Origin: Naegleria gruberi | Lineage: Eukaryota | DNA length: 64,000 bases | Assembly: GCA_000004985.1 (NCBI GenBank) | Contig: GG738861.1 | Direction: 5' to 3' (one strand) | Part shown: positions 12,580-58,670 of the stretch, in pieces | Position numbering within the stretch: position 1 is the first letter of the stretch | Layout of the letters: every line of letters starts with the position of its first letter | Program-made: the position numbers and the translations under genes | The notes under the pieces: generated by a model | The model's input: only the letters and a program-made list of their open reading frames with translations | Told to the model about the DNA's origin: nothing | Databases searched by the model: none

Positions 12580-14544
12580 TTATAATTGAATTCTCTTCTT
12601 TTTGGTTTCAGGTGTTGGTACTGTTGAAAGACTTCTCTTTTGGCCACTTTCTAATAGACTATTCCAGCTCCTAATTTGACGAGTGGTTTCTTCAGAGTCA
12701 AGGGTCTTGATTATGCCCATAAAGAAGTGATCAATTGCCTTGGTAAAGTAGGAGGATGATTTCATATTTAAGCAATGAGAAAAGTGGTGAATGTCGTATG
12801 GCTTTAAATCTAGATTGGAAGGAAGTGTGTTTCTGCTCCACTCTGCGAGTGTTTCCAAAATATTAGTAGCAAGACTGACACTTTCATTTTCCAAGAAGGT
12901 GGAATAGGTTTCAGAAAATGAGCTCATCAAATCTTGTTTGAATGTTTGACTTGAAAGAGCATTAGGGTTAGCGTAGAGTTCATACACAAATTTCAAAACA
13001 GTTTGGATAACATCTGCTTTCTCAGTCGAGTACTTGTAAACTGTATCATTCCAATTCAATAAATTGTATTCATAGAGTGGTTTTAAAAGTACATTCCAAT
13101 TTTCCTTTAGGAACTTTATATCGATGAGAAATTCATTCGATATTACATCAGAAAGAAGGCATCTAGAATAGTGGAAGAGTGGTCCACATGATTTGCACTG
13201 TGTCAGGGCATTTAGGTATGGTTTTAATTCAGAATTAACCATATCATGATAGCTATCTTCAGCATAGTAAAAGAATGGATTCCTCAAGAATTTCATCTTG
13301 CAAGAATATATTGGATTTGTGTTAAAGAAGATGAAATCCAAGAGATGGTTAAACTTTGAGGGTGTATAATCCTCCTTAGAAAAACTGTCAACTCGAAAGT
13401 CAACATCATCCATAGATGATAAAGCCTCAGCATTAAATGAATCAACCAGAATATCATAATTGATCAAACTTCTCTCATTGACAGCATCAATAATGAGAAT
13501 AGTCTCAATTGATTGTAAAACTGATATTGTACTGGTATTGAATGAAACTGTTGTTTTGAGTGAGGTTACTATATCATCATCTTCTTCATCTTCACCTGCT
13601 CCGTTTACAGTTGTGTAATCCTGATTATCGTCATCATATTCAATGAAATCATCCATATCACTATCCTCTTCATCGTCATCTGGTAGTTGAATTTGTGATT
13701 CGCTTGTGTCTAATGCAGAAAGTGAAAATACTTGTGAATTAACAGGTCCACCAGCTGTATTGGAAAGTTGAGGGATTACAAAATTATTTTCAACAGTTGT
13801 GTTTGGCCAACCAATTACTAAATTCTTGATGAGTGGCTGAATATTATTAAATGTTTGATTGGCTGCTGATTTAAAAACTGCTGGGGTTGGAGGAAAGGCA
13901 TCAAAATTATCCATCAATAATCCTGATGATGGTGTTGATGGCATTATCATCTTATTAAATCCACTACTATTTCTTGTTTGTGCTAGTTTTTTAAGAACAA
14001 ATTCCATCTCTGAAATTGTTAATCCTAGTAATTCCACAGATTGAATGTGAGTATTAGGTCCAATCAAAGGATTATTGTCACACAGATTTTCCAAGAGTGC
14101 CAGAGGAAAATTAATATTCAATTCCGACTTGGATGTAGATTGATAGCTTTGTGGTGTATTTTGTGCTGTTGTGACTATAGTATCGGATTGAACATTAACT
14201 CCATTGATGATTTTCTTGTGCTTGGAAAATGTTAAAAGTGAAATTGAAGCCTTTCCTTGATAAATTTCCTCTCTAATATCCATGATCGTTTCACTCCACT
14301 CTTTACTGACCAATTTAAAGTAGAACAAGGCTGGACATATTGGAAGGAAGGATAAGATATTCTTTAAATTATTTCGTATAATACAGCTCGGATCACTAGA
14401 TTCCTCCTGGGTGATACTCGTCAAGACAAATGCTGAAATATCACTCAGACTTTGAGTATTGATTGGTGTGGAAGGAAACAGGGTTTGTCTGCTTTCCGAA
14501 GGAGTTTCAAGATCAAAGGCTGCATCCAGAGAAAATGGATTCAT
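12580..14544 (-). CDS. Hypothetical 654-aa protein with a possible N-terminal F-box-like motif and an acidic stretch.
   Basis: Single long ORF with an ATG start. LKNILSFLPICPALFYFKLVSKEWSETI resembles an F-box. An acidic DDDEEDSDMDDFIEYDDDNQD block follows. Nothing else recognisable. It shares a ~2-kb divergent intergenic region with the FNT gene. Confidence 0.35.
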   Translation of the reverse strand: MNPFSLDAAFDLETPSESRQTLFPSTPINTQSLSDISAFVLTSITQEESSDPSCIIRNNLKNILSFLPICPALFYFKLVSKEWSETIMDIREEIYQGKASISLLTFSKHKKIINGVNVQSDTIVTTAQNTPQSYQSTSKSELNINFPLALLENLCDNNPLIGPNTHIQSVELLGLTISEMEFVLKKLAQTRNSSGFNKMIMPSTPSSGLLMDNFDAFPPTPAVFKSAANQTFNNIQPLIKNLVIGWPNTTVENNFVIPQLSNTAGGPVNSQVFSLSALDTSESQIQLPDDDEEDSDMDDFIEYDDDNQDYTTVNGAGEDEEDDDIVTSLKTTVSFNTSTISVLQSIETILIIDAVNERSLINYDILVDSFNAEALSSMDDVDFRVDSFSKEDYTPSKFNHLLDFIFFNTNPIYSCKMKFLRNPFFYYAEDSYHDMVNSELKPYLNALTQCKSCGPLFHYSRCLLSDVISNEFLIDIKFLKENWNVLLKPLYEYNLLNWNDTVYKYSTEKADVIQTVLKFVYELYANPNALSSQTFKQDLMSSFSETYSTFLENESVSLATNILETLAEWSRNTLPSNLDLKPYDIHHFSHCLNMKSSSYFTKAIDHFFMGIIKTLDSEETTRQIRSWNSLLESGQKRSLSTVPTPETKKKRIQL

Positions 14545-24478: not shown

Positions 24479-25906
24479 TTACAAGTCTGTTTCTTGCTCA
24501 TCGTCTGAAAGTGTTGGAATGGGCTTGAGCTTTCTCCTTTTCCTTTCCAAAAGTTTTTCTCCATTGCTATAAGTTACTTCACCCATATATTTATCTGCTT
24601 TATCCATTAGTGTATCAATTTCATGCTTTTCAAAATCCAATTTTAAAAAGTTCCAAACTGGTATATCCTTAGAAGAGGAATCGTGAGATATTGGTAGTGA
24701 AACATAGATCAGTTGAACAGAGTGCCCATACTTTGAATAGGACAAGACATATTCTCGTAGTATTTCAGAGATTTTGAAATACATCAATGGTTTGTAAAAC
24801 AAGTCAGATTTCCTCGAAAGACCCAAAGCTCCAAATCTTCCCTTAAATCGAACAACACAAACTATATGTCTGTAAACTCTCTGGGTCATTGTTGTTTGAA
24901 AAAAGACACTAAACCTGTCAACATCTTCAAAATCTTGTGTACAAAAAAGGGAGAGAAAAGTACCCTCAACGCATCTAATTGGAAGGCAATCACTGACAAC
25001 TTCCTTTGCCGTCTGAATGATACTCTTCAAGGGTCTCAATCTTGTGATATCAAAAAAGTGTTGCTCTATATAGTTATACTCGAAAGCTGATATAAAATTC
25101 TGGATTTTCAATAATTTGGTGAACATGCTTTGGTTCTTGTCAGATAAATTTGGATATTTAGGCCTAGGAACCTCTGGAAGATCGGTATATGGATGATTTT
25201 GAAAAGGGTTTACAATCAATTCCTTATGAACTGTTAAATCTTGATTCGTCTCTTTGAACAATAACTTGATTAAATTCTCCTTAGATTTTCTTGGTGAAGC
25301 TAATTGATAACAATCATCGTCCTCCTCTTCCAGCATTGAAGTATGAGTCGGAGATACCTGATGAGTATTGAGCAGTGTTGGCCTCTGTTTAACTTGTTTT
25401 GTTGTTTTCCTAGATGTTGAGCTACTTGGGGTTGGAAGTGAGGAATTCAAATTCCTTTGAGAATTAAAATTTGATCTTGATCGTCTGTGGTTGGGAGAAA
25501 TTGGTTGATTCGTAACCATTACATCCAAAAATCGATGAGAAGTCGAATGGGATCTCTTTGAAAGAGCAGTAGAAACTAATTGCTGATCCGAAGAGTCATT
25601 CTTCTTAATTCTTTTTCTCTCCGGTGAAGATCCTCCAATTTTCGGAAGTAACCCATGGCATTCCTTACTCTTCTTTAAAGGGGAAGTAGAGCTTGAATTT
25701 CCTTGCTGATGATTTGTCTGCTGCACTTGTTGCGAATGATGAGGATCAGCTTGTTTTTGTTGATTAATACAATGCTGATGAGGATGTGGTGATGCTGATG
25801 CCAAACACTGTTGTATGGCCTTAACAGTCGAAGATCCCTCCGAAGAAAATCGATTCTGTTGGTGCTGCTGATGAACCTGCGAATTGGGTCGTAAGGTCTT
25901 TTGCAT
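24479..25906 (-). CDS. Vasohibin-like protein, a candidate tubulin tyrosine carboxypeptidase of the transglutaminase-like cysteine protease family, with a low-complexity S/Q/H-rich N-terminal half.
   Basis: The C-terminal ~200 aa aligns with the vasohibin catalytic core. IRCVEGTFLSLFCTQD matches vertebrate KCCEAVILGIYLTN around the catalytic Cys. RHIVCVVRFKGRFGALGLSRKSDLFYKPLMYFKISEILREYVLSYSKYGHSVQLIYVSLPISHD matches RHIVLGVNFAGRYGALGMSRREDLMYKPPAFRTLSELV...VSHD, covering the His and Ser region. Confidence 0.65.
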   Translation of the reverse strand: MQKTLRPNSQVHQQHQQNRFSSEGSSTVKAIQQCLASASPHPHQHCINQQKQADPHHSQQVQQTNHQQGNSSSTSPLKKSKECHGLLPKIGGSSPERKRIKKNDSSDQQLVSTALSKRSHSTSHRFLDVMVTNQPISPNHRRSRSNFNSQRNLNSSLPTPSSSTSRKTTKQVKQRPTLLNTHQVSPTHTSMLEEEDDDCYQLASPRKSKENLIKLLFKETNQDLTVHKELIVNPFQNHPYTDLPEVPRPKYPNLSDKNQSMFTKLLKIQNFISAFEYNYIEQHFFDITRLRPLKSIIQTAKEVVSDCLPIRCVEGTFLSLFCTQDFEDVDRFSVFFQTTMTQRVYRHIVCVVRFKGRFGALGLSRKSDLFYKPLMYFKISEILREYVLSYSKYGHSVQLIYVSLPISHDSSSKDIPVWNFLKLDFEKHEIDTLMDKADKYMGEVTYSNGEKLLERKRRKLKPIPTLSDDEQETDL

Positions 25907-26073
25907 TAATTTTTTTTTGTGTTGTTTTTAAAAAAACCGTTAGAAAATTACGGCGTACGTTAAGCAATTAAGGAGTTGTAATGACCATTTCGAAAGGTTG
26001 GAATGTCTTTTCGTCAGGAAGCATGTTTGTGTCCATATTCAAAGTCCTGCAGAACTTTTTGGTTTTCTTTTAT

Positions 26074-28050
26074 TTATTTGGTCAACTGAAAATTGAAAGC
26101 ATTTTCACAGGTTGTCTTACTACATACTGACCTGACTTGATCCTCAAAGAATTGATCACAATCAACAATGAGTAAATTCTTATCCTTACTAATCAATGGT
26201 GATGTATTGGTACTATTCAGTGGTGCAAATTCAATGGAAAGGAAATTGAAACAATCGTCACAACTTCTCTTTTCCTCTTTTTCCTTCCTCTTGACCTTTT
26301 TAGAGCTGCACAAATTGCAGAAAATCTTTCCACAAAATCTGCAATGATGTCTTCGATTGATGAGTGTGAATTTGGTGTTGCATTTCATACAGGTTTTTGT
26401 TTCGTCATCTTTAAGGTAGGATTGTGCTGGATTCAATTTTGTAATGATAGAGATGTACTTTTCATTGGCCTTTCCTTGGATTACTTGACCTGTCACGTGT
26501 AAAGTATACAGTTCAGTAAGGAGTGGAAAATCCCACAATGTGTCAATCACTGTTTGACGATAATCTGTATGAGTTAATAATTTGGAAACAAGCTCATCAC
26601 TGTCTTGTTCTCTAAAGCATGTAATAATTGTTTGGAAGAGAATGAATTTGGCATCATCTGTTTCAAGTGAGAAGGTTTTGGTTTTTCCTTCCTTGGAGAA
26701 AAAGAAACTAATCCATTCGAATAATAATTGATAGCGAGGAGTTGAGGGAGAATTATTCATTGCCACCTCTGCCAAGGTTAAACTTGTAGTCATGTGACTG
26801 TCTTCAGCAAGAGCTCCAAATCTAATGGCATGAACAAAGAATAATGAGCTCTTCATAGAGTAAAGAGAGCTGGATTTTGGATTATTTTCAATTAAATGAT
26901 CTATCTCTGCAATCAATTCATTCATTTCCTTATTACTCTTATCCAAATTGAGTTCATTATCAAGAATCCACTTTCTAAAATGACATTCCAGTTTTCTCTC
27001 CAAATAATGAATGTTATTTCTCGATATATTTGCTGCTTGAGTGAAATAATGCAAAGCACATGCTAATAATGTTGCCTCACCTGGATAGTGCAACTTGTAG
27101 AAGGATTGTCTGTACAATTCGTAATAAATTTCTCCAGTCAAGAATGAAACTATTGGGTGCGAGTCTGAATATTCCTTCTTAATATCCAAAATGGCTGCGA
27201 GCGCTTTTTCGTATTGTTTCTGTTCAAATAGTTTTTGACTTTCAATCCAAATATCAACAACAGTTCTATTGTGAATATTGGAACTAAGTGAACTCAACAA
27301 GGACCAATACTGATGAGAATCCAAATTGACCATTTGAAAGAGGAATAAAGTAAGAATTTCGTATAAATCTGGTTTTTCCACATTAATCAAACTCTTCAAA
27401 GTTGGTACAATTGAGTGAATAAGCAATTCATTCGATCCAAGAGGTAGATTTTCTATTGTATCCATTACTTGTCTTACCTCATCAAAGTGTTGAGGAATAT
27501 TTGGTAAATCCAAATAAATTGCCACCAGCTCCAATAATAACATGATCAATCTTTCGGCAACTTTCGAATCATTTCCAATAGATACAGGAAACACTCTCAA
27601 ATTCACCACTCCATCATCCATCCTTTCAATAATCATCGTTTCCCTACCCACAAGTCCTGAATTCTTTGAAAATAAATAAATCAACTGCCAACACAATGTC
27701 ATGACATCCTTCTCATTCAATAATTTGGCAAATTTCCATTCGGTTGATGAAAATGATTCTCCCTGAATTTGTTCTATGAAATTCACATAAGTTTTGAATG
27801 AATTCTTCAGTTTGCTATAATAATAATATTCATTCTCTTGTTCATTGTGTAAACATTCGTCCACTTTCAAAATTAAATCACCTTCTGGGAAGGAAACTAA
27901 TCGGGTGTTGGATTTTACAACGAAATACGATTCTCCGTCACTTGATTTACACAAGAAGAGTTTGGTATTTGGTGTGGTGTGAAGATTTTCAGTTGTGAAA
28001 AAATCGCAACCAATACTCCTTTCCACAGCTGCCAGTAAATCTTCTGACAT
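26074..28050 (-). CDS. FYVE zinc-finger protein of 658 aa: a large N-terminal helical domain plus a C-terminal FYVE finger.
   Basis: C-terminal ...CMKCNTKFTLINRRHHCRFCGKIFCNLCSS... carries the R(R/K)HHCR and (R)CG FYVE signatures. The upstream ~550 aa are helical and repeat-like. Confidence 0.7.
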   Translation of the reverse strand: MSEDLLAAVERSIGCDFFTTENLHTTPNTKLFLCKSSDGESYFVVKSNTRLVSFPEGDLILKVDECLHNEQENEYYYYSKLKNSFKTYVNFIEQIQGESFSSTEWKFAKLLNEKDVMTLCWQLIYLFSKNSGLVGRETMIIERMDDGVVNLRVFPVSIGNDSKVAERLIMLLLELVAIYLDLPNIPQHFDEVRQVMDTIENLPLGSNELLIHSIVPTLKSLINVEKPDLYEILTLFLFQMVNLDSHQYWSLLSSLSSNIHNRTVVDIWIESQKLFEQKQYEKALAAILDIKKEYSDSHPIVSFLTGEIYYELYRQSFYKLHYPGEATLLACALHYFTQAANISRNNIHYLERKLECHFRKWILDNELNLDKSNKEMNELIAEIDHLIENNPKSSSLYSMKSSLFFVHAIRFGALAEDSHMTTSLTLAEVAMNNSPSTPRYQLLFEWISFFFSKEGKTKTFSLETDDAKFILFQTIITCFREQDSDELVSKLLTHTDYRQTVIDTLWDFPLLTELYTLHVTGQVIQGKANEKYISIITKLNPAQSYLKDDETKTCMKCNTKFTLINRRHHCRFCGKIFCNLCSSKKVKRKEKEEKRSCDDCFNFLSIEFAPLNSTNTSPLISKDKNLLIVDCDQFFEDQVRSVCSKTTCENAFNFQLTK

Positions 28051-38129: not shown

Positions 38130-40496
38130 ATGATGAATAGTACAACATCAACAACAACAACAAGCTCTCTGGGTGAATATTCGGAGCAAAAATCCACTAC
38201 TACTAACCATCATCATCACTCCATTCCCTTCTCAATGCCAAATATTGTGAATAATACCTTCCATACTAATTTTGAAGCTTCTCTGTTACCTTTTACTTTT
38301 GCTCCTCCCCCAAGTAGATTCTTCTCTTTGCTTCATCATGATTCTGATGATGATCGTCGTCACCATCCCTATGAAGATAATCAGTATAACCAAAAACCAT
38401 CAAAAGTAATTATAACCAATAATAATGCAAGTGTTCATCAACAACAGACAATTGCAAACAACAATACTACTACTACTACTAATAGTGGTTGTTCAAATTG
38501 TTCCTCCTCATCCTCACATTCATGTTCTAACAATTTGCAGCAACAACAACAACAGCAATTATCATCATCAGTTAGTAACAATGTTTTTGTTCCTAACCAA
38601 TGCTCTTCCTCCTATAATTATAATTCATCGACATGTAACAATAATTCGGATAGTATTAGTAGTCAAAGAAAACGATCATCATCCTCAGCCAGTAATAAGA
38701 CTAATACCTCCTCTACCACAACAAAATCCCAACAAGAACAAATTGTAAATAAGAATCAGGAATTACTCGACGCTCCTGCTAGTGTACTCTTGTTGGAGCC
38801 TCCTTCATTATCTACCATTATTGACGATCATCACCCAACCATTCCAACCTCTGCCTATTACTTGAAGAAACAAGAAGAAGAAGAATATGGACCAAATAAT
38901 AATCCATCACTGCTGACTACTTCTCCAAAACATGCTCTTGATTTCAAGAAGAGAAGTTTCTCGCATGAAGCTGAAGAAATTAGTGTTGAAAATTGTGATG
39001 AGAGTGTTTGTTTAACGTGTGGATGCGAAGAGGATAAGGTTGAAGCCGAATTGAGATTACAAGATAAATTGGAGAGAAAAAGTCACAAGAGACGTATGGA
39101 AGGAAGTGATGAGGATGAACAAATGTCAGACGATAATACTTCTTCAACCACTGATAATTCTACCAAGAAGAGAAAAATGTTGTCAAAAGTGGAAAATTTG
39201 GAAGCACTGTCAAGTGTTTTACATCAACTAGAGCCAGATTGTGTTTTACATATTTTCGAATTTTTGAGTTTTTCTGGTAAGGACTATTGGTTTACTGATA
39301 TCAGAAATATGTATGGTAGATTTAGGTATAATAACCAAATTCTGCCATTATTCAAATTTGTTACAATTGAGCAACATAGTCCTTTAACTCTAGATGAAAC
39401 TAATAACCATGGAGCAATTAATTGCAACATCCAAAGCCTTACAATAGAAAGAAGAACAAACCAACCATTGGAATGTGAAACTGGTTATCTGAAAAAGCTT
39501 GGAAATGCTCTTAAAACATTTATTTATTACAACAGAAGTACTAATTTATCTAAAAATGTCTCTAATCTTGCCATCTCAATGATGTCTGACGAACAGAATG
39601 GAAAACCTAATCAAACTGATGTAATGGGTTATCTGTCCTCGGAAGATGAAGTTGATTTATCAAGCTTTGAGCTTATCGAAGACGAGAATAGTCACGTTAT
39701 TGGTTTGAAGAGAAGAGCTCGATCTGAGGGATCTTGCTTTTTGAGAGAAGTTTATAGAAATTGTAGAGTTTTGGAAAAACTGAAGATTGTCGATATTAAG
39801 GGATACGTTCCTTTCAAAGTATCCATGAGACCTGGAACTAATAGACCAGTCGATTGTTTAGCATTCACCAATACTCTTACGAAGATAAGATTGTATAATT
39901 GTATGCTTCCTAATCACACTTTGCAAGCTATATCTAAAATGGTCAATTTGAAGAGTTTGCACTTTGAAAAGATATTTGTGAGTGATCCAAATCAATATGA
40001 TGTACTATTGAAATTGCGTAATTTGGAAGTTTTGAAGATTGAAGTCTCTGAACTCCCACTAACAGTATTGAGAAACCTTCCTACTAGTTTGTCCAAGTTA
40101 ACAAAACTCTATATTAATGTCCTTTCTAATGGTAGCTTCGATGAGAATCTCAGAGTTGATCAGTTAAAGGAACTCAGATACCTGGCGTTGGTGAGCCACT
40201 TTAAAGTTGACTTATTGTCAATAATGAGAAATTGTCAAAAGTTGAAACATTTACATTTAGGATTTGATGTTTGCTTTAATCACATATTCCCTAATGAAAG
40301 ACTTGCTAGCTGTATTTTGAGAAATGTCTTCATTTCTCCAGACAGATCCAAAGTACTCATCCAAAACAACACCCTAGTCAACTTACAACTTTCCCCAGCA
40401 AGTATCAGAGCCGCACAAAAAGAGCTTACCTTTATCAAACAACAACGACAAGCCCTTGGTAAACCAACTCTTTCCATAACAGAGTTTTCACAGTAA
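38130..40496 (+). CDS. Low-complexity S/T/N/Q-rich protein with a C-terminal leucine-rich-repeat region and a possible F-box-like segment.
   Basis: The N-terminal ~300 aa are homopolymeric: TTTT, HHHH, QQQQQQ and Ser runs. The middle has LEPDCVLHIFEFLSFSGKDYWFTDI, which is F-box-like. The C-terminus has leucine-rich repeats (LKSLHFEKIFVSDPNQYDVLLKLRNLEVLKIEVSELPLTVLRNLPTSLSKLTKLYINVL...). Confidence 0.45.
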   Translation: MMNSTTSTTTTSSLGEYSEQKSTTTNHHHHSIPFSMPNIVNNTFHTNFEASLLPFTFAPPPSRFFSLLHHDSDDDRRHHPYEDNQYNQKPSKVIITNNNASVHQQQTIANNNTTTTTNSGCSNCSSSSSHSCSNNLQQQQQQQLSSSVSNNVFVPNQCSSSYNYNSSTCNNNSDSISSQRKRSSSSASNKTNTSSTTTKSQQEQIVNKNQELLDAPASVLLLEPPSLSTIIDDHHPTIPTSAYYLKKQEEEEYGPNNNPSLLTTSPKHALDFKKRSFSHEAEEISVENCDESVCLTCGCEEDKVEAELRLQDKLERKSHKRRMEGSDEDEQMSDDNTSSTTDNSTKKRKMLSKVENLEALSSVLHQLEPDCVLHIFEFLSFSGKDYWFTDIRNMYGRFRYNNQILPLFKFVTIEQHSPLTLDETNNHGAINCNIQSLTIERRTNQPLECETGYLKKLGNALKTFIYYNRSTNLSKNVSNLAISMMSDEQNGKPNQTDVMGYLSSEDEVDLSSFELIEDENSHVIGLKRRARSEGSCFLREVYRNCRVLEKLKIVDIKGYVPFKVSMRPGTNRPVDCLAFTNTLTKIRLYNCMLPNHTLQAISKMVNLKSLHFEKIFVSDPNQYDVLLKLRNLEVLKIEVSELPLTVLRNLPTSLSKLTKLYINVLSNGSFDENLRVDQLKELRYLALVSHFKVDLLSIMRNCQKLKHLHLGFDVCFNHIFPNERLASCILRNVFISPDRSKVLIQNNTLVNLQLSPASIRAAQKELTFIKQQRQALGKPTLSITEFSQ

Positions 40497-42275: not shown

Positions 42276-44889
42276 TTACTTTTCTGTGGCCATATAGACT
42301 CCTGTCCAATTTTCAGGAGGCATTGGTAATTCACCACTCATATACATGCAACATCTTGACATCATTTCTTGAGATGGTCCATCATCTGGATACTCTTCAA
42401 GGAATATCTCAAATTCTTTTAGGGCTGTTTTAAAATCTCTCTTCCAATAATGGGTTTCTAGAATGGTTGCATAACGATCACACATTCTTTGTACTTCATC
42501 TCCAATTTCTAATCTTTGACCGACTGGAGAATAGATTCTTCTTCCAATTGCTTTTCCTTTAACAGCAACGCAGTCAATCAGTCTGCAAACAACTAATGTC
42601 TTTACCTTTTCATAACAAGTATCAGAGATAAGCATATTGGTTGAATAGAGCTTGTTAATTCCTTCTAATCTTGCAGCCAAATTCACAGTATCTCCAATGC
42701 AAGTGTATGAATATCTATAACTAGATCCAATATTTCCCACAAGGCAATCACCTAATTACATTTTGAAAGATTAGAACCACTAAATACTTACCAACACTTA
42801 TTCCAATTCTTGTATATAATTGAGGCAAGTTATGCTTGATAAATCTCTTGTTGAGAAGATTTAGCATTTTCTGAATATCAAGAGCTGACTTAACTGCCAA
42901 ATATTCATACTTTTCAATAGTATCTGGAGCATTGAATAGAACCATCAACGCATCACCTATTTTCAAATTATATTTAAATTATAGTATCTTAATAAACATA
43001 CCAATAAATTTGTCCAAAACTCCCTTATTTTTGTAAATGATGGTACAAGTCTTTTCAAAATAAATATTCAACATTTTGATAAGCACACCTGGTTCCAATT
43101 GTTCTGAAATAGTTGTAAATCCCTTAATATCACTGAAAAATATAGCCATTTTCTTGCTCCTTACACCTAGCTCAAAACTTGATTGATCCCCTTTCATAAA
43201 TGTGCTGACAATTTCCACTGGTACATATTTCATAAATCCCTTCATTACAGAGCTCATTCTTGAAAAGTGGTCCTGCAAAACAAAAACTTCATAAAATATA
43301 GAGTTTCTTCCTTGATCCTCAACCTTTTCCAAGTCCATATCTTGTTCTTGATCATTTCTATCAGATTCTGAAGCTCTAGAAGTAACTTCACTAATCAAAT
43401 CAGCGGTATCAATTTGAATATTTTGCAATTCCTCCATTTTCTTTCCCAGTTGTGTTAATGGACTGGTTACAAAATAAGAAATTATAATTCCCACCACCAA
43501 AGAAATAACTACCACCAAAGAATCTACTATTAACACAACATCTCTCAATGTATACACATTTCCCATGTAGTCGTCTATTGCAATGAAAATCATACACTTC
43601 CAATCCAAACCGTACTTGTCTTTAATGTCTACCACCTCTAATCTGTACTCTGCTCCATTGACGTAGAATTTTGTTAATGGAATTGAGACATTTACCAAAG
43701 AAGTTCCATATGTGTGAATCAATTCAGATCCAATCTTGGCAACAGTTGGGATACTACTTTCATTCAATCTCTTTTTTTGAATAAACCCTTCTGCCTCCAA
43801 ATCAAATATAAAAATTGTATCGTTCAATTTGGAAGTGGCAACAATAACCATATCCTTGCTTTGGACAACATAGATAAACGAGTTCTTACTAATTTCTAAA
43901 TTTTGATACAAAAATATAGAAACACTTGCAAGATCCATATCCACTGATATCAATACATTCATTTCAGGCTCCAGTGTTTTGGTGTACTTGTTTAAAACAA
44001 TATTACTTTCATTCTTGATTGGAAAATAGGAACTGACCCAATAAAAACCATCCTTATCACAATAGGCATCCCCCCATGTTATTTTACCTAGTATGTTTCC
44101 CTGCTTCCACCAATACAAATCGTCCAAGTGGTTCACATAATAATTGTCACAATAATCAACTGGATCAGGAACGACATCAGTCCTTGCATCAATACTAGTC
44201 ACCTCATAGGTTCCATTAACCCAACAACCATCTCGATAAACATCTATAGCTGGTAGCCCTCTATCAGACCAAAACAAGCCAATATAAAGGTCATCCTTTC
44301 TAGTATATGACACATATGAGACGTTATTCACCACAAATTGAGCAAAAAGTGTTGAATAAATCTTACTGTACTCGAACGGTACAATTTCCTCATTGTACAA
44401 ACTTCTTCCCACGCTCTCTGTAATTCTGAAAGGAGCTGCCATAAAATTGGAAATAAATTCTGATGCTGAAAATTTTAAATTAGAACCCATCACTTTGGTA
44501 AATTCCTCAATAGACTGTTGTTGTACAGAAAGTGTGATGGCAAAGATGGTGAGTGTTGAAATTAATGATAGCAAAACAATACTAAGGGAAAAGCAGCATT
44601 TGATGGAGAGAATCTTTTTCAAAGATTTTGCTACATCCCTATGATTATCATGAAGCTCCACTTTTACCTCTTCCTTATCAATCTTGGAATCGGCTGTTTT
44701 CAACACTTGATTTTTACTAGTAAATATTTCCTCAACAGAATCCCGCATATTCACTCCATGAGCCAAATGCCCTTGTGAATCCTCTTGACGAGTTCTCTGC
44801 CAGGAGGATCTTGAATTCGTTAAATTTTCCTTCCTTACAACTTCTAGAGATTCATTGGAGGGAGAGGGTGTAATTTTACTCATTCCCAT
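42276..44889 (-). CDS. Receptor-type class III adenylyl/guanylyl cyclase: TM helix, ~330-aa extracytoplasmic domain, TM helix, cyclase homology domain. Three exons at about 43002..44889, 42792..42956 and 42276..42751.
   Basis: TM1 is CCFSLSIVLLSLISTLTIFAITL. TM2 is VVLIVDSLVVVISLVVGIIISYFV. The cyclase domain is ...MAIFFSDIKGFTTISEQLEPGVLIKMLNIYFEKTCTIIYKNKGVLDKFIG then an intron, DALMVLFNAPD...YTRIGISVG then an intron, DCLVGNIGSSYRYSYTCIGDTVNLAARLEGINK.... The metal-binding D...D residues and the transition-state N/R are in context. Both introns run GTATGT or GTAAGT to AG and keep the conserved motifs contiguous. Confidence 0.8.
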
Positions 44890-45363
44890 ACTATGTGGTT
44901 ATAATGTTGCCAATTTTTTTGAACTTGTCGCATCTCTCTGCTGCAGACAAGACTCAATCCATGTAATCAATAAGGAGGGCAAAGCTTAATAAAATATTGC
45001 GCTCTTAATTTACGGTGTAGAAAGCAGTTAATCATTGATTCTTTTGTAAACATATAACCACTAAAGTACTATTCATTGTAAAAATGATATTATTAATGTA
45101 TTTTCACTTAATACAAATGAACACTGTTGCCAATTGCATCTGAACGGATCATAAAATTTCTTCTGGGATTGTTATGCGTTATTGAACAAAACACTGCTGT
45201 AAAGTGGACTGATTTGGCGCCAAAATTTAAAACTTTTAAAAAGAAAAATGCAAAACTCTTACTAGAACATTATTCATCATCTCTTCAAAGTTATCGTCAT
45301 CAAATTGTAATCAAAATATTATTCTCTTTCTTTGAAATATATAATTGTATAAGAACATATTAT

Positions 45364-48300
45364 ATGAATCAAACTAAAAGGCCAGCTAGTGCTGGAGTGA
45401 CCAGAAAGACTTTTGCTCCGGAACCTGTGTTGTTCTATCCTAACTTTAAATCAACTACAGAAATACCTAAAGAACTATCCGATGAGGCAGTTATTAAATA
45501 TAATAGCAGACCAGCATCTGCTAGTTGTGTAAATAGAATTTTCAAAAAGGATAGTATGAAACAGTCCAAAGAAATTGATAAAACTAAGTGCTTCCTAAGA
45601 ATTTCAACATCTCCACTACCCTATGCAAGATCACCCTCTCCCTCACCATCAAGTAAAATTGTGGCAAGTAATAAGAATATAACTAATTCTAGGCCTACAT
45701 CAGCCTCTAGGTCAGCAGTTTCAATAGCCAAGAGCAGCAGTACTTTCAAAATAGGGCTATCAAATGAAAATTTTAGAGAAATAATTGAAAAAAACATGTT
45801 GGAACAAAAGAAAGGGAGACCCCCTTTTCAAAAAACATTTACAACACAACTAGGACAGGAATCAGATGATGAAAATGAAGATAACAAATCTAGACAAGAA
45901 TATAGCGGAGATTTGAAACATAAAAATCCTAGACCAAGATCGGCAGTAGTACAAAGTGCAAGGCCATGGTCTTCATCTACTTCCTCATCAATGCGATATT
46001 CAAAAAAAAGTAGAGTTACTGAAACACCAAGATTTGCTGGAAGTCTACAGAATGAGAAATCAGAGAAACCCATTGTATCTGCATCCCAACCTAAATTTAG
46101 TAGAGTTTCTGAGCTGACCTCCCCTCATGGCCTTTCTCGCACCTCGCTTCCCACATCGGAAAGTATTGAAAAGAAGGTCGCCAATACTCCCAGAAAGTAT
46201 AGTAATCTCAAACCTACACAACAGTACAGCTCCTCATCATCGTTTGATAGTTCTGCTAGTATGAAAAAGTCTACATCTACATCCTCTGTAAAAAATCCCT
46301 CTCAATCCAATACTGCAAGTAATAGAACCACCCCTTGTATTGAAGAAGCTAGCGACTCTGATTCTGAAGAATTGGATATTAAACCATATGAAGTAGACTT
46401 GAGTGAATTGAAAATTGATACTACCAAAAAGAAAGCTGAAGAAAAGAAACCAACCCTATCACGAACAGGAAGCTTTGTTTCCAGTAGAAGCAGTACCCCA
46501 TCGAGTACCCCAACAAACTTTAATGCTACAACGAGTCAATTGAATATAACTGTAGCCCTCAATGAAAAATCCCAACCTAGCTCCAAAACAACGACACCTC
46601 AAAACAAACAAACTCCATCTTCATCCAGTAATAGAAGACAGAGTGTTTTTAAATCATCTGCACAATTCTCATCGGAAACATTCGGCTTAGGGGAGGAGTT
46701 TGAGTCAGCCCTAATGGACTCTACTGCTGTCCTTAAAACCCACATTCTCGCCCTTCCTAAAACTAAAAATCAGTTACAGAGAAGTCCTTCTAGCAAAAAG
46801 ATGGGAATTCATTCCTCACCACAGATTAGAAATGACTTTTTATTGTCTCGAAACAAGTTTAACACAACCAGTTTTGCAAAAGCAGCAGAAAGGCAAAACA
46901 AGGCGTTTACCAATCTGATCAAATCAGATAAGCAGAAAAATAACCAACTTGAGGTGGAAGAAATTCAAGAAACGGTAACCTCCATAAATCTGATGGAAAA
47001 GGAAATTGTCTACTCAACGATAGATATTCCTATCACATTCCATGAAGATGAAAATATACGAATAGATCTTAACATTCCAATAATTGACACTAAGGGAGGC
47101 TCTGATCAAAAACCAAAAGAAAAATTAACAGATTCTAAAACCTTCCAATTCAGTAATATCACAAAATCCATCAATCAAGTTATGGACAGTTGGGGTAATA
47201 ATATTCAAACTAGTCAAGAGAAACAAATATATGATTCAGTTATCAATGATGCTCAGGCCATTGAAAAAATGGCTGATTTAAAACAATCAGTCGAACTCAT
47301 TAGTGGCTACGGATCTAAGGCTGCAATGAAAACTGCAAAGAAAAACAGTGAAGAAATTTCAAGATATATTATAGAACAAAATCCATCGTTTTTTGGTTTC
47401 GAAGTTAGTAAAACTTTTTTGGAAGATTTTACTCAAAAAAAGCAGGTTGAAACAGAAGATGATATCATCAATATAATTAAGAATTTTAAGCAAGATATTA
47501 CACAGACTAAGAATGATACCAAATCTAGTGATTCTGAAGAGGAAGCTCATTTTTCTAAAAAAGCTGCTGAGCACAGACCACTTACACTAGGAAAGGAAAA
47601 GAGACGAAAAATCAACCAAAAGATTCTTGATGAAAGGATTGCAGAAATTAAAAAATACTCTTGGAAGTATACAGAGCTAGAGAATAGAGTAAAGGAAATT
47701 AAGAAGGAGATGAAGGAAAAGGAAAAGAAACTAAATATCCAAGATCATATCAAGTTAAATACTGCCAGGCAATCATTCGAGTCAATACAATCAAAGAAGG
47801 ACTGTGTAAAAGATAAATTCGCAGACAGAAGAGAAAGAGCCCTGGTCACTTTTCAAGAACAAGAGAAGAAACGGTTTGAAATACTTGAAACCAAATTTGA
47901 AGAAAAGGAAAAAAGGAGACAAAATGCAACAAGTGAGAAAATGTCCAAACTTTACAAACAGAAAATGTGGAAACTGCAAAAGACTTGGTTTCCTATTATC
48001 AAATTCTCTCTATTTATTACCCAGCTAAGCGAACCAATGCTCAAAGCAAGACAAGTCAGAAAACACAATGCAGACGTGGAATGGGCCCACTGCATTATGA
48101 AAAAGAGACTCTTGCCTTACATTCTTAAAAGAAGGGAGCAGAGACAAAAAGCTGCTCTCGAAGTTATTCGTAAAAATTGGCTTATCTATGTCATTAACTT
48201 TAGGGTTAGACGGAGGAAACGTGCTGCCAACCTTATTGAAAGATTTATTAATGACATCAACAAGACGAGTAGAATTGTTAGAGCTGTATCCAGATTCGTT

Positions 48301-49395
48301 ACAGCAGTCAAGAGAGTTCAAAGATTTATTAAGCACTTTTTGTTTAAGAGAAGAATACATTTGTACATTCTTAATGAACAGTACAAGCGATGTGAGAGAG
48401 ACCTTATTAAGAGCATAGCTAAGGAAGATTTCCAAGAAGTGAGATTTAAAATTGTTGATGTCTTGAAAAAGATGAAGGAAACAGCATTCTTTGAAGAACC
48501 AGTAAATGCCACAGAAACCAGAGCTATTCAAAGAAAACAAAATGCCTCTCCCACACATAATGCCAACAGTGGATTTTCAGATGATACAAGTGGCGTAAGG
48601 AGAACCAAATTAGCCATTACAGAAGCAAAGAAGAATCTCAAAGCTGTTCAAAAGTTTGTAATGGATGAATTGAGAGACTCCTCTACTTCAAAATCCGAAA
48701 CAAAGAGTAATTCCCCTCGAGGAAGAAAATTCTCATTCCTCTCAACTGTAGATTCCGTCCTCAAAGGAAGTGATAAATGGAACAAGGGATTGGATGATTT
48801 CCCATATTTAATACATATCATAGAACAAGGATCACTGAAAAGTGATATAATTTTAAAAGTTGGTAGAATGTTAAGAATAACTCCAAGAAAGAGAGCAACA
48901 AAGACTAAAGATGAAATTAGAATGAAGATTGTTAGAGAAGATCTTGCACGTAGAATGAATCAAATCCAAGTTGAAGAAAAAGAAAATGAAAAAAGACAAG
49001 AAAGAAATGTTATTGCTCTTAATGAACAAAATAAGAAATTTACAGAAATTCACAAAAGATCTGTACTTAATGCAGACATAACCAACCAAATCATTGCCAA
49101 ACAAATAGACATCATTGAGGAAGAGGAAGAAATTGAAAGAGCAAAAATAGAGCTCCAAAAGAAAAAATCTGTTACTTTCATTCCTGCTTTTTATATGGAA
49201 AATCTAGTTAGAAAAGGTCTTGAACTGACACTTCGAGAAGACAGTGGAAATCCACTAATAGAAACATCCTCAAGATCTCCAAAAAAGAAATCCACTAAGG
49301 TACGATCAAGAAGATCATCTATTAAAGACTCACTCGCAGAAGAAAGAGAGAATGATTTCCTTGAATATGAAAAACTTTTACAAGACCTTCAATAA
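45364..49395 (+). CDS. Large protein of ~1340 aa. The Ser/Thr/Pro-rich N-terminal half is low-complexity. The C-terminal half is coiled coil with IQ-like basic helices.
   Basis: The ORF-track segment 45127..49395 starts at a TTG. The first in-frame ATG is MNQTKRPASAGVT at about 45364. The N-terminal half is SSSTSS/TPSS-rich. The C-terminal half is K/E/R-rich coiled coil with IQ-like motifs (...IRKNWLIYVINFRVRRRKRAANLIERFINDINK...VQRFIKHFLFKRRIHL...). Confidence 0.45.
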   Translation: MNQTKRPASAGVTRKTFAPEPVLFYPNFKSTTEIPKELSDEAVIKYNSRPASASCVNRIFKKDSMKQSKEIDKTKCFLRISTSPLPYARSPSPSPSSKIVASNKNITNSRPTSASRSAVSIAKSSSTFKIGLSNENFREIIEKNMLEQKKGRPPFQKTFTTQLGQESDDENEDNKSRQEYSGDLKHKNPRPRSAVVQSARPWSSSTSSSMRYSKKSRVTETPRFAGSLQNEKSEKPIVSASQPKFSRVSELTSPHGLSRTSLPTSESIEKKVANTPRKYSNLKPTQQYSSSSSFDSSASMKKSTSTSSVKNPSQSNTASNRTTPCIEEASDSDSEELDIKPYEVDLSELKIDTTKKKAEEKKPTLSRTGSFVSSRSSTPSSTPTNFNATTSQLNITVALNEKSQPSSKTTTPQNKQTPSSSSNRRQSVFKSSAQFSSETFGLGEEFESALMDSTAVLKTHILALPKTKNQLQRSPSSKKMGIHSSPQIRNDFLLSRNKFNTTSFAKAAERQNKAFTNLIKSDKQKNNQLEVEEIQETVTSINLMEKEIVYSTIDIPITFHEDENIRIDLNIPIIDTKGGSDQKPKEKLTDSKTFQFSNITKSINQVMDSWGNNIQTSQEKQIYDSVINDAQAIEKMADLKQSVELISGYGSKAAMKTAKKNSEEISRYIIEQNPSFFGFEVSKTFLEDFTQKKQVETEDDIINIIKNFKQDITQTKNDTKSSDSEEEAHFSKKAAEHRPLTLGKEKRRKINQKILDERIAEIKKYSWKYTELENRVKEIKKEMKEKEKKLNIQDHIKLNTARQSFESIQSKKDCVKDKFADRRERALVTFQEQEKKRFEILETKFEEKEKRRQNATSEKMSKLYKQKMWKLQKTWFPIIKFSLFITQLSEPMLKARQVRKHNADVEWAHCIMKKRLLPYILKRREQRQKAALEVIRKNWLIYVINFRVRRRKRAANLIERFINDINKTSRIVRAVSRFVTAVKRVQRFIKHFLFKRRIHLYILNEQYKRCERDLIKSIAKEDFQEVRFKIVDVLKKMKETAFFEEPVNATETRAIQRKQNASPTHNANSGFSDDTSGVRRTKLAITEAKKNLKAVQKFVMDELRDSSTSKSETKSNSPRGRKFSFLSTVDSVLKGSDKWNKGLDDFPYLIHIIEQGSLKSDIILKVGRMLRITPRKRATKTKDEIRMKIVREDLARRMNQIQVEEKENEKRQERNVIALNEQNKKFTEIHKRSVLNADITNQIIAKQIDIIEEEEEIERAKIELQKKKSVTFIPAFYMENLVRKGLELTLREDSGNPLIETSSRSPKKKSTKVRSRRSSIKDSLAEERENDFLEYEKLLQDLQ

Positions 49396-49707: not shown

Positions 49708-51778
49708 ATGAAGAAGGTTCGTTTATTTTCATAATCCACAACAATGATGTATTCTGGAAATTATAGTTTTTCAGCTCTCGTGCCTCCAAATCAGTAAATA
49801 TTGAAGATGTACCATTAAAGAATTGGACTAGCGATAACTTTAAACAATGGCTCACCGATGAAGGCTATGAAAAGAAGAATGTTGTTACACGTATGTTTTT
49901 ATCTATTTTACATTGTCTCTAAATCATAAATGGACACTTTGAATCATCATGTGGTGATGAATAACTTACCGATCATCAATTTGTGTGATGATGTTTGATG
50001 AATAATAACAACAACATAATGAAATACAAATGTCGTGATATTAACAATTAACAATTAACAACAACAACAACATTTGAAAAAACAATTTTATTATTATTAT
50101 TATATTATTTAATATATATTTACATACGCTTGGTTTATTATTATTATTATTATACAATTAAAACAGCACTGGCCAAACAACAATTTGATGGTGCTGCACT
50201 GATGCACATCAAAGTGGAAGATTTTACTGATAGTGGTATTCCTAAAGGAAGTGCACTCTCAATCTTTAACAAAATTGAAGAGTTAAAGATCAAACAAATT
50301 CAAACAGGACTTCTCCAAGATTCCGTTGTACAATTACCATCCATGGCTACCACATCAACAACTGGCCAACCACAAACAAATAGACCACTCCCAACAACTC
50401 CAACCACAAATGCTCCTTCTTCAAAACCACCATCCTATGATGATGATGAAGTTGGAGATTCTCCAGTCGATCCAAATAGCAAATATAATGAAATTCTTTC
50501 TAAACCAAATCAAAAGACAGATGAAGAAGAGGAAGATGATAAAGAACTTGCACGTGATTTGGAAGATCGTCCAACAACAGGTATCAATATGGGTACTACA
50601 TCAGGAGCAAGTAATTTTGGAAGTAAGAGTGCTTCAACTGGTATTCAATCATTTAATCAAGTACCTGAAGCACCATTGTGGAGTATTAACGAATTTTCTG
50701 CTAATCAAAAGACAAGTAAGTTTCAAAATTGAAATATTATTGGTTGACTAGTGACGTAGACTTTGAATTCTGTCTCACCAAGTTGGATAATCTGAAAGCA
50801 CAATATGATACTAACATTATTAGTACTATTTGTCAAAATTTGACCTTCCCAGAAAGATTCCGTTACAAGTATCTTAATCCACAACGTTTGCCAATCTATG
50901 CAAATCAAAGAGCAAAGGATCAACCATTTATGAAGGTTAAGATGGTTGTCACTGAAATGGGTGACGGTGCTGCTCACCGTTTCGTCAGAAGATTCGGCTC
51001 TTTATTCAAGCACTCAACAATTCAACAAATGGAATACGGAATGTTCCACACTGCTTTAATTATTGGACCTTGGTATTTGGAATGGGGTGATTCATCTATT
51101 GCCGTTGTTAGAAGTAAATCTAGTTCCAAGGCTGTTTTTGCAGTTGATGTTGCTAAGGTTATGGGATTGGAAAATGTTGCTAAATCTATTGATAAGATTG
51201 CTTCTATTTGTGCTCACTGGAATGCTCACAAGACTTATGATAACAAGGCCTGTAACTGTCAACACTTTGTCAGTGCTGTTCTTGAATATCTTGGCCTCAG
51301 AGCTGAATTTGAAAAGAATATTAAGGGTCCATTGCGTGTATACATGGATCGTCTGAAGAATGATGGTGTCTGTGATATGAGATATCATCTCGAACCAACT
51401 ATTCAAGATGCCATTATTAACAGCGATTGTAGTGAAGAATTGAAAAAGTTCGTGGCAGGTAAATCAGTTACTTTCAAGACTCACAAAATGTTGGACGAAT
51501 TTGTACATACTATTCAAAAGTGCAAACCACTCTACTTTGATGCCAATGGTAAATATGATTACATGTTACTCAAGTCATTCGATAGAGCTTTCTGGTTGCG
51601 TGCTCAATCATCGAAGGAGGCCGAAAATCCAGATGTTAAACCTTGGACTGCTGATAATGGTGATTGTTTGTGTCCTTTCAATGGAAGTGTTGATACAGAA
51701 ATTAATAACAGTATTGTTGGTAAGGATTACGAAGTCGAAGATGTAAGAATTCCACTCCCAGTCTTTAGAAAGAAATAA
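49708..51778 (+). CDS. Predicted fusion of a SAM domain with a DeSI/PPPDE-like (DUF862) cysteine peptidase domain. About four exons at ~49708..49716, ~49774..49890, ~50167..50715 and ~50853..51778. If exons 3 and 4 are not joined, these are two genes (49708..50732 and about 50930..51778).
   Basis: Exons 2 and 3 encode a SAM domain: WTSDNFKQWLTDEGYEKKNVVT, then an intron, then LAKQQFDGAALMHIKVEDFTDSGIPKGSALSIFNKIEELK. A Pro/Thr-rich linker follows. A GTAAGT donor at ~50716 pairs with a ...tttgaccttcccag acceptor at ~50852. There is a gatactaacat branch-point-like sequence about 37 nt upstream. This joins frame 0 to the frame-2 ORF exactly: ...NQKT-K-RFRYKYLNPQRL.... The downstream domain has MEYGMFHTALIIGPWYLEWGDSSIAVV (His region) and YDNKACNCQHFVSAVLEYLGL (NCxHF Cys region), typical of the PPPDE/DeSI permuted papain fold. 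Confidence 0.5.
50059..50152. repeat. Cluster of simple repeats, (AAC)n and two (TTA)n tracts, inside the long second intron of the SAM-domain gene.
   Basis: ...caacaacaacaacat... and ...ttttattattattattat...ggtttattattattattattatac... read directly from the sequence. Confidence 0.65.
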
Positions 51779-57600: not shown

Positions 57601-58670
57601 CTACCATCAACTTTGTGTATAGATTTTTGGGTAAGAAACTCTACATTTTCTCCCAATTCTTGTTTGATGATCACATTAAGAGCAGACTCCTCAAGGACAT
57701 TAGATTCTACAAGGATGAAGCTCTCAAGAGTTTAGACAACAAATTCCCTCTCAAGAGTGCCAAGAAATTCATTAAGGATATCAAAAAGTTGGGTCTTTCA
57801 TCTCAAAGTGGACTTTCTTATCTTGATCAATTCAGAGTTCTCATTACTGAAATTGGTAATGCTTTGGGTTATGTAAGAATGGTTCGTGCTGGTGGTTTGC
57901 GTTATATTAACGATGCTATTCAATTCGTTCCAATGAATTGTTTCCCAGATGTTCAAGAAGATGAAGAAGAAAAGAAGATTGAAACACCAGATGCTGCCAC
58001 AACTGATGGTTCAGTTCCACCAACTACTGCAACCGAAGAAAAGAAGGAAGACGATGCCAACAATATGAGTGTATTGTGTAAGGATGTCTTCTCACAAGAA
58101 ACTATTGAAGCTGCCAATAATTTACACAATGTCGTTTTGAATATGGCAAAGATTTCACAATCTCAAAGAAGTGACTACTTTAAGACATTGGAAACTGTAT
58201 TCAAGAATGAATTGTTGAAGGAACAAAACAACCACTTGAGAAACTTTTATATTATCATTCCAGCTCTTACTCTGAGCTTTGTTGAAACAATGCTCATTTC
58301 TAAGGATAAGATGTTACGTTCAGGGAAGGAAGCTTCCTTTACCGATGATGGTTTTGCTTTAGGTGTTGCTTTTATTTTGAAGGTTTTGTGTCAAAATGAA
58401 AAATTCGACAGTTTGCATTGGTTTGAAAGTGTGGCTATGACTTTCAAGCAAGAATATGAAGATACTAAACGTGTAATGGCTGAACTTAGTCAAAAGAAGA
58501 ATGAAGGCAATAAGAAGAAGATGTCTGAAAAGGAAAGAGAAAAGATGATACAAAATGATGACGAGCTTCAAACCATGAACCTTACCCTTAACAGAATTTT
58601 GAGTTATAAGAGAGAATTCGAATTGTTATTCTTCTCATTCTCTGGAGCTAGAGTATTCTTTAGAGATTAA
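54653..58670 (+). CDS. WASHC4: WASH complex subunit 4 (SWIP / KIAA1033 homolog). About 1300 aa in three exons at ~54653..54920, ~54980..55522 and ~55582..58670.
   Basis: Long collinear similarity to metazoan WASHC4. RVYETLGELLGVLITLDEIILQNSAFSHQLTLYKRMISK matches [90 protein letters not shown] matches [67 protein letters not shown]...FTDDGFALGVAFILKVL...FDSLHWFESV...LQTMNLTLNRILSYKREFELLFFSFSGARVFFRD matches the SWIP C-terminus. Introns run GTATGT to AG and are phase-consistent. Confidence 0.8.

Follow-up and report, generated by a model that had tools for sequence, protein, structure and literature searches.

An intact vasohibin gene in Naegleria gruberi, with flagellar beta-tubulin as a candidate substrate of its product

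A 64,000-nucleotide stretch of the Naegleria gruberi genome (assembly GCA_000004985.1, contig GG738861.1; called the window below) carries on its minus strand a complete open reading frame (ORF) for a vasohibin, the family to which the human tubulin carboxypeptidases VASH1 and VASH2 belong. The features of the locus are collected in Table 1. A vasohibin homolog had been called here in an earlier, sequence-only reading, and the ORF was found at exactly the position given there, with a product of 475 amino acids (aa). The window is 34.5% GC and its genes are dense and mostly intron-poor. The start codon (25904-25906) has an A-rich context upstream and is preceded by an in-frame stop 8 codons before it. 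With Pfam, the product matched Vasohibin (PF14822) at 171.8 bits (cut-off 24) and E=2e-50, covering profile positions 42-241 of 245, and no other family was found on the 475 aa. A phmmer search against the PDB returned only chains of VASH1 (best E=1.5e-36) and VASH2 (E=3e-33). These matches were collinear over aa 240-440, as had been claimed for the C-terminal half of the protein.

Table 1. Features of the vasohibin locus. Positions are those of the window; aa numbers refer to the 475-aa product unless another protein is named.
Feature	Position	Strand	Basis or remark
Complete vasohibin ORF	24479..25906	minus	ATG start, 475 codons and TAA (24479-24481), uninterrupted, no intron needed
N-terminal extension, aa 1-206	25289..25906	minus	Basic, Ser/Gln/His/Thr-rich, predicted disordered
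Heterolobosea-conserved pre-domain segment, aa 207-238 (KSKENLIKLLFKETNQDLTVHKELIVNPFQNH)	25193..25288	minus	Aligns with the VASH1 SVBP-binding helices alpha1/alpha2
Vasohibin catalytic domain PF14822, aa 241-441	24584..25186	minus	Pfam, PDB sequence matches, model, Foldseek
Tyr277 (VASH1 Y134), active-site hydrogen-bond network	25076..25078	minus	Alignment
Predicted catalytic nucleophile Cys312 (VASH1 C169), with Arg311 (K168) before it	24971..24973	minus	Alignment
Predicted catalytic His347 (VASH1 H204)	24866..24868	minus	Alignment; invariant across the family
Ser364-Arg365-Lys366-Ser-Asp-Leu369 (VASH1 S221, R222, R223, L226)	24800..24817	minus	Third triad element and carboxylate/tyrosine binding
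C-terminal helix and tail, aa 442-475, including the basic cluster RKRRK (aa 455-459)	24482..24583	minus	
Upstream FYVE zinc-finger ORF, 658 aa (FYVE domain at its aa 547-603)	26074..28050	minus	Separate gene or N-terminal part of a fusion
"Intron" of the public model, GTATGT...TTCGCAG, 251 nt, 34% GC	25877..26127	minus	Frame-preserving

The active site was compared with human VASH1 and VASH2, using reference sequences 100% identical to the full-length PDB chains 6K81_A and 6J4S_A. Residue equivalences were taken from a numbered 14-sequence alignment and invariance from a 101-sequence family alignment. The motifs read LPIRC(312)VEG and YRH(347)IVCVVRFKGRFGALGLS(364)R(365)KSDL(369)FYKPLMYF. The motif block quoted in the sequence-only reading is nearly identical to this, with the Cys region in place, and its GRYGALG reads GRFGALG here. 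The catalytic set of VASH1, C169, H204, S221 and L226, corresponds to C312, H347, S364 and L369, and so the Cys-His-Ser triad is complete and a loss of Cys or His was not seen. The Cys, His, Ser, Arg and Leu are invariant in the family alignment, with the Cys in 100 of the 100 aligned members. Pocket residues Y134, K168, F202 and R222 of VASH1 correspond to Y277, R311, Y345 and R365, and those of the proximal basic groove, K146, R148, R223 and K229, to R289, R291, K366 and K372. Apart from F202 (Y345) and K145, the latter replaced by T288, the pocket and basic groove show only exchanges between Lys and Arg. Many of the equivalent positions have been mutated in the human enzymes: activity was abolished by changes of C158, H193, S210, K135, K157, R211, R212 and K218 in VASH2 (PMC6642083) and of K168, S221, R222/R223 and K145/K146/R148 in VASH1 (PMC6937246).

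The predicted fold points to the same family. An AlphaFold2 model of aa 196-475 had a mean predicted local distance difference test score (pLDDT) of 87.8 and a predicted template-modelling score (pTM) of 0.82. When this model was searched with Foldseek against the PDB, ranks 1-23 were all VASH1 or VASH2, with E down to 3e-22, a root-mean-square deviation (rmsd) of 1.2-2.2 A over about 210 columns and a TM score, normalized to the target, of 0.76-0.85. The next fold family was the CPR-C4 protease (E=7e-5, TM 0.4-0.5), roughly 17 orders of magnitude weaker. CPR-C4, LapG and the "vasohibin-like" bacterial and algal family (PMC4866520) have a distant common fold with a Cys-His core, and so much weaker a match rules out CPR-C4 or another transglutaminase-like family as the identity of the protein. 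With VASH1/2 the best match by both sequence and fold and the Cys and His present, we consider the protein a true vasohibin with an intact active site. It is about 30% identical to the human enzymes, whose complexes with SVBP are known (PDB 6OCF, 6J8F, 6J4S), and shares their Pfam family, transglutaminase-like fold, Cys-His-Leu/Ser set, pocket (Y134, K/R168, S221, R222) and groove (K/R146, R148, K/R223, K229). Sequence and model together indicate that it is very probably an active VASH-type protease.

The vasohibin family has been described as widely spread in eukaryotes, fungi excepted, by Sanchez-Pulido and Ponting (PMC4866520). Our profile search found members in Klebsormidium, Trebouxia, Volvox, Pythium, Aphanomyces, Diacronema and the jakobid Andalucia, and also in cnidarians, vertebrates and several chytrids and blastoclads. 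When 1.84 billion cluster representatives were searched exhaustively, 867 of the clusters matched at E<=1e-3, 531 of them at E<=1e-10. The sequence-only reading had held that the family is patchy outside the metazoa, and this view has to be given up since green algae, oomycetes, haptophytes, jakobids and chytrids carry the gene as well as animals. The gene had also been proposed as a help in placing the organism. It adds little to this because three neighbouring ORFs already match N. gruberi proteins exactly (XP_002678645, XP_002678541 and XP_002678652, from one 507-kb scaffold).

The closest relatives are heterolobosean, with 54-73% identity. They are N. lovaniensis C9374_006540 (529 aa), Willaertia magna ABK040_002932 (325 aa), both annotated as "hypothetical protein", and sequences from two environmental or Sequence Read Archive assemblies. 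The N. lovaniensis and Willaertia orthologs share with the N. gruberi protein 55-71% identity in the domain, the pre-domain motif, the groove substitutions, a basic disordered N-terminus and an intronless ORF. They differ in the length and sequence of the extension and in having a FERM/LRR gene upstream, not a FYVE gene. A neighbor-joining tree of 211 core columns, without support values, placed the gene in a single heterolobosean clade, with animals, chytrids, green algae and oomycetes each grouped apart. Since the tree follows organismal groups, it is consistent with vertical inheritance. Horizontal transfer was rejected on the basis of the separate heterolobosean clade in this tree.

A decaying or catalytically dead remnant is extremely improbable at this locus and is effectively refuted. 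Nothing specific speaks for such a pseudoenzyme or pseudogene, only the absence of the canonical substrate described below. The reading frame is uninterrupted over 475 codons of AT-rich DNA, and for the roughly 240 codons that are open upstream of the domain alone the probability of this arising by chance at 34.5% GC is about 1.6e-8. All the catalytic residues are intact, and the active-site columns are invariant in orthologs from at least 4 other heteroloboseans. Judged by its sequence, the locus is a genuine, intact and conserved N. gruberi vasohibin gene and an ordinary member of a pan-eukaryotic family.

Public databases already list the gene, under a model that is uncharacterised and probably merged in error. 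This record (XP_002678649.1 / EFC45905.1 / D2VBG6_NAEGR; NAEGRDRAFT_48196) is a "predicted protein" of 1106 aa with FYVE and Vasohibin Pfam matches, and in the exhaustive search it was 100% identical to the vasohibin domain. In it, aa 1-641 of the FYVE ORF upstream are joined to aa 11-475 of the vasohibin ORF, with Val11 at the junction. If the model is right, a single protein would hold an N-terminal region and both domains, these connected via a disordered Ser/Gln-rich stretch, and the FYVE domain, which binds phosphatidylinositol 3-phosphate (PI3P), would keep the protease at endosomes or other membranes with PI3P. Several signals weigh on the side of this fusion and against two separate genes. 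The donor GTATGT is perfect and the same as in two verified introns, the splice preserves the frame and the acceptor ends in CAG. On the sense strand of ORFs GTATGT is about 3-fold depleted (5 in 46.3 kb, with about 15 expected), and here it lies 54 nt before the stop, while by chance about 1-2% of ORFs would have one in their last 60 nt.

The remaining observations favour two genes. The proposed intron contains the last 17 codons of the FYVE ORF, its stop codon with an overlapping AATAAA, a 167-nt spacer and the vasohibin ATG. At 251 nt and 34% GC it is longer and less AT-rich than the three introns that could be verified in the window (59, 45 and 40 nt; 13-25% GC), and two genes are more likely because of this atypical length and composition. 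The 251-nt segment resembles ordinary same-strand spacers of the window, and the 167-nt spacer is typical of these (110-325 nt). The same donor also pairs in frame with an acceptor, TTTCAATTTTCAG, that would give an intron of 42 nt (26127..26086), a typical size here. This splice would leave the stop codon of the FYVE gene in use, with ...VRS-LTK as the end of the protein. The vasohibin ORF also opens with an ATG of its own, 8 codons past an in-frame stop. No FYVE domain accompanies the vasohibin in 4 of 4 heterolobosean relatives (Willaertia, N. lovaniensis and two other assemblies), where the gene stands alone and the FERM/LRR gene upstream of it ends in an ordinary stop codon and shows no donor signal. 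A second domain is also missing from ten long family members (633-951 aa). The public model does not count as independent evidence because it was itself predicted computationally from these signals. A search for orthologs of the FYVE protein, in which conservation of the C-terminus could be seen, returned only its own record. We conclude that a stand-alone 475-aa gene, separate from the FYVE gene, is likely, and that the 1106-aa fusion is unlikely. XP_002678649.1 therefore probably merges two genes, and it should be used with caution in phylogenies and in statistics of domain architecture.

Two genes of the window supplied the verified introns. The gene for a WASH-complex subunit 4 (SWIP-like), seen as ORFs 54994-55548 and 55584-58670, has the canonical 59-nt intron GTATGT...TTATAG at 55523-55581 (plus strand). 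A membrane adenylate/guanylate cyclase gene (ORF 42979-44889, minus strand) continues downstream via two introns within 42752-43001, of 45 nt (GTATGT...AATAG) and 40 nt (GTAAGT...ATTAG), and splicing restores the class III cyclase motif KFIG/DALMVLFNAP.

In front of the domain, the protein has a long extension in which AlphaFold gave no secondary structure (pLDDT 31-50 for aa 1-206). Its composition over aa 1-204 is 17% Ser, 13% Gln, 7% His, 7% Thr and 7% Lys. With 26 Lys and Arg compared to 7 Asp and Glu in aa 1-190, the isoelectric point (pI) is 11.2. It carries an LPKIG motif (aa 87-91) and a basic cluster RKRIKK (aa 97-102). The sequence-only reading had described a Q/H/S-rich extension of 250 aa that is not seen in vertebrate VASH. 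About 205 aa are indeed rich in Ser, Gln and His and are predicted to be disordered, and aa 207-238 turned out to be a lineage-conserved motif instead. The vertebrate N-terminus is short, as stated there, while such extensions are common in vasohibins outside vertebrates. The ten long family members mentioned above have the vasohibin domain only, and long flanks without a domain are therefore normal in these organisms. The extensions of the heterolobosean homologs are also basic (pI 9.9-10.8), with weak sequence similarity only. Homology across the extensions was considered and rejected since the likeness is one of composition and of the short LPKI[GD] motif. Disordered flanks of human VASH are reported, as quoted in PMC11770126, to mediate binding to the lattice. 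By analogy, it is reasonable that the basic extension may bind acidic tubulin tails.

The conserved segment that follows (aa 207-238) contains the shared heterolobosean motif LF(K/R)E..DLTVHK(E/D)L(I/L)(V/I)NPF, and a helix was predicted with low confidence at aa 207-216. VASH1 contacts SVBP through W74, W78, V81, V91, I95 and L101 on alpha1/alpha2, along with loop contacts. In an alignment and model segment of low confidence, these positions correspond to I213, F217, D223, N233, N237 and L243. I213, F217 and L243 are hydrophobic, and V81, V91 and I95 are replaced by the polar D223, N233 and N237, so that the hydrophobic contacts of alpha1 would be kept and those of alpha2 lost. A tblastn search with human SVBP found no match in the 64-kb window, which is weak evidence given a genome of about 41 Mb. 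The divergent segment and the analogy to trypanosomatid VASH suggest that the enzyme probably works without a metazoan-type SVBP. One sequence with an animal-type interface was met outside the animals. P0027, from the EukProt "Colp12" colponemid transcriptome, has the SVBP-binding motif TWSRMW and the C-terminal GYQIRV of animals, and it groups with the cnidarians Nematostella and Actinostola inside the animal part of the neighbor-joining tree. This could be contamination or a genuinely deep conservation of the SVBP interface.

Naegleria is the origin of the multi-tubulin hypothesis, and on turning into a flagellate it assembles all of its cytoplasmic microtubules de novo. It has been known since 1988-1994 that its terminal Tyr is on beta- rather than alpha-tubulin. 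The flagellar alpha-tubulin exceeds the usual length by two residues and has Gln in place of Tyr at its end (Lai et al. 1988). The terminal Tyr sits on beta-tubulin, and all four divergent mitotic tubulins are without one (Fulton 2022). The EY motif is missing from all Naegleria alpha-tubulins, in heteroloboseans only flagellar beta-tubulins have a Tyr end, and the Naegleria EB1 homologs, another -EEY class, are also without a terminal Tyr (Velle et al. 2022). That study raised the puzzle of CAP-Gly proteins that have no -EEY partner, with vasohibin and tubulin tyrosine ligase (TTL) unmentioned. Its supplementary alignments give the N. gruberi alpha tails as ...GEEGEDGGDQ (flagellar), ...EEKEETEQ, ...LDEGETLN and ...LDEGEEL. 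The flagellar beta tail is ...EGEEQPADY in N. gruberi (JGI 83350), with the same end in N. fowleri, and ...EEPQY in Acrasis. Among the published sequences of N. gruberi, N. fowleri and Acrasis, there is no alpha-tubulin that ends in Tyr or Phe. A divergent mitotic beta-tubulin, JGI 55900, ends ...EGETEPQYE with Tyr as the penultimate residue (Velle et al. 2022, Data S6), and if the Glu behind it were removed, the tail would finish in -PQY, as does the flagellar beta-tubulin of Acrasis. Our literature search found no paper that ties vasohibin functionally to Naegleria.

These tails bear directly on what the enzyme could do. The high similarity to VASH1/2 and the intact active site would fit a canonical, SVBP-dependent alpha-tubulin detyrosinase as in animals. 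This is very improbable, and the tubulin sequences already published contradict it: Tyr cannot be removed from alpha-tubulin where no alpha-tubulin ends in it. Also, neither flagellates nor spindles were stained by YL1/2, an antibody specific for tyrosinated alpha-tubulin (Velle et al. 2022). Three of the five alpha1/alpha2 SVBP contacts are polar in the low-confidence alignment, and there was no SVBP-like ORF in the window, the latter again being weak evidence. The tubulin detyrosination that the sequence-only reading had proposed does not hold in its canonical alpha-tubulin form, and it keeps a possible target in the Tyr-ended flagellar beta-tubulin. With the canonical substrate absent and the pocket conserved in at least five heteroloboseans, beta-tubulin is the simplest target. 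From the conserved pocket and the precedents in other organisms, we think that tubulin in some form is probably the substrate. For the Tyr of beta-tubulin specifically, the same evidence leaves the case evenly balanced.

Several findings weigh against the beta-tubulin Tyr. Known VASH substrates have Glu as the third-last residue (-EEY, -EQY, -EAY), which is thought to be needed for recognition (PMC11761321). The heterolobosean beta tails do not have it, with Ala in -ADY and Pro in -PQY, and the subsite preference of the enzyme would therefore have to be a modified one. The residues with which VASH1 docks on the alpha-tubulin lattice, K145/R148, H268/V270 and R234/R296/R299/L303 (PMC7449697), are mostly not conserved in their equivalents T288/R291, S411/K413 and F377/K439/G442/Y446, at positions that vary across the whole vasohibin family. 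All heterolobosean vasohibins have the groove swaps K146R, K168R, R223K and M227F/Y (aa 289, 311, 366 and 370; 24791-25042, minus strand). In the other 96 aligned members, R was found at K146 in 6, R at K168 in 15 and K at R223 in 14. At M227, Y was found in 5 of these 96, and F was in none of the six commonest states. The swaps conserve charge, and they are compatible with a shifted subsite preference and do not prove one. Finally, neither TTL nor an SVBP-like partner was found within the 64-kb window of the approximately 41-Mb genome.

Another possible explanation of the same facts is that the enzyme is active and its target is not the terminal Tyr of tubulin. It could act on another C-terminal residue, such as the -DQ end of flagellar alpha-tubulin, or on an aromatic end outside tubulin. 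The missing alpha -EEY, the beta tails without the Glu that is important for human VASH1, the diverged lattice-docking residues and the lineage-specific groove would all agree with this. However, the aromatic/carboxylate pocket (Y277, R311, Y345, H347, S364, R365) is kept or conservatively swapped compared to the Tyr-specific VASH1/2, and a Tyr-ended tubulin exists and is conserved across Heterolobosea. The Naegleria EB1 homologs offer no terminal Tyr either, and beta-tubulin is already accepted by VASH in another member of Discoba. We regard a target other than tubulin Tyr as improbable, if less so than the canonical alpha-tubulin reaction.

Our best explanation as a whole, which we favour slightly on sequence and model, is that the gene encodes a competent vasohibin carboxypeptidase of 475 aa that would stand alone, work independently of SVBP and act on flagellar beta-tubulin. 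Cys312, activated by His347, would attack the last peptide bond of an acidic tubulin tail. Ser364 and the backbone of Leu369 would orient His347. With the aromatic end residue and its carboxylate held by Tyr277, Arg311, Ser364 and Arg365, cleavage would free the Tyr. The physiological substrate would most likely be the flagellar beta-tubulin ...EEQPADY, and the enzyme would act at the basal bodies, axonemes and cytoskeletal microtubules that are found only in the flagellate stage. The basic, disordered extension may help it bind the acidic microtubule surface.

Precedents for parts of this explanation come from other organisms. For the VASH of Trypanosoma brucei and Leishmania mexicana, the comparison was drawn from published descriptions. 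The trypanosomatid enzyme removes Tyr from beta- as well as alpha-tubulin, and does so without SVBP (PMC11761321; PMC12714142; van der Laan 2019). Like Naegleria, trypanosomatids belong to Discoba and have a Tyr-ended beta-tubulin and a VASH with long non-conserved extensions. Their VASH is a single one with no recognizable SVBP, and it has a role in the flagellum and cytoskeleton there. They differ in that alpha -EEY is also present and VASH acts on both subunits, whereas the Naegleria enzyme would act on beta only. Their beta tails also keep the third-last Glu (-EQY, -EAY), in contrast to -ADY in Naegleria. Knockout of VashL (Cre05.g241751) in Chlamydomonas abolished axonemal detyrosination and disturbed intraflagellar transport (PMC11770126). 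This is likewise a protist vasohibin gene and backs a flagellar role for VASH outside animals, although its substrate is alpha-tubulin -EEY and it is distant (green-algal matches were 30-40% identical). Together the trypanosomatid and Chlamydomonas precedents support a beta-tubulin and flagellar role. The setting differs from that of human VASH1/2 in that Naegleria has no alpha-tubulin -EEY. Its enzyme does not conserve the lattice interface and, by the low-confidence alignment, has lost the alpha2 hydrophobics for SVBP. In place of the short N-terminus of vertebrates, it carries about 205 aa of basic sequence predicted to be disordered. MATCAP/TMCP1 carries out the same reaction, tubulin detyrosination, as a zinc metalloprotease of unrelated fold and mechanism, and it is not homologous.

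A broader proposal, which we put forward tentatively as a possibility that is doubtful as it stands, is that Heterolobosea have a tyrosination code on beta-tubulin only. The vasohibin would be beta-specific and SVBP-independent and would take -ADY and -PQY ends, not -E-x-Y. It would act solely on the microtubules formed de novo in the flagellate stage and would govern how differentiation-induced CAP-Gly proteins and motors bind. A FYVE-tethered fusion form of the enzyme might also be made in N. gruberi. If the enzyme does act on beta-tubulin, Naegleria would be the first system with detyrosination confined to beta-tubulin, and the chemistry of the modification would be separated from the identity of the subunit. 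An intact, conserved vasohibin is a concrete candidate enzyme for the question of whether the Tyr of Naegleria beta-tubulin is cycled.

The genes around the vasohibin include those for the FYVE protein, an AMP deaminase, AAA ATPases, a GH31 protein, the WASH-complex subunit, a formate/nitrite transporter, mitofilin, a mitochondrial carrier and a PAS/cyclase protein. No neighbour is related to tubulin, and the window holds no tubulin gene. Genomic context was therefore rejected as a functional clue, eukaryotic context being uninformative here. A tRNA and Rfam scan of the window gave no matches. Synteny with relatives was also rejected since it is not conserved. In Willaertia, N. lovaniensis and a third heterolobosean assembly (the P0004 homolog), the vasohibin lies directly downstream of a same-strand FERM/LRR gene with an LRR of the TMOD-LMOD type. 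The three loci (L005 3316-6978, L001 4839-9590 and L002 6543-9266) have spacers of 15, 218 and 160 bp, respectively, and the 15 bp in Willaertia are remarkably short. In N. gruberi, the FYVE gene is in place of FERM/LRR. FERM and FYVE are both phosphoinositide-binding modules, which could be a coincidence.

Five large ORFs (544-1422 aa) of the window had no Pfam domain at E<=1e-3: 45127-49395 and 38130-40496 on the plus strand, and 59955-62051, 12580-14544 and 62340-63974 on the minus strand. Three of these are exact N. gruberi "predicted proteins". Two further ORFs without a Pfam match, 50130-50732 and 50729-51778 (plus strand), overlap by 4 nt and may be one gene split by an intron or a frameshift.

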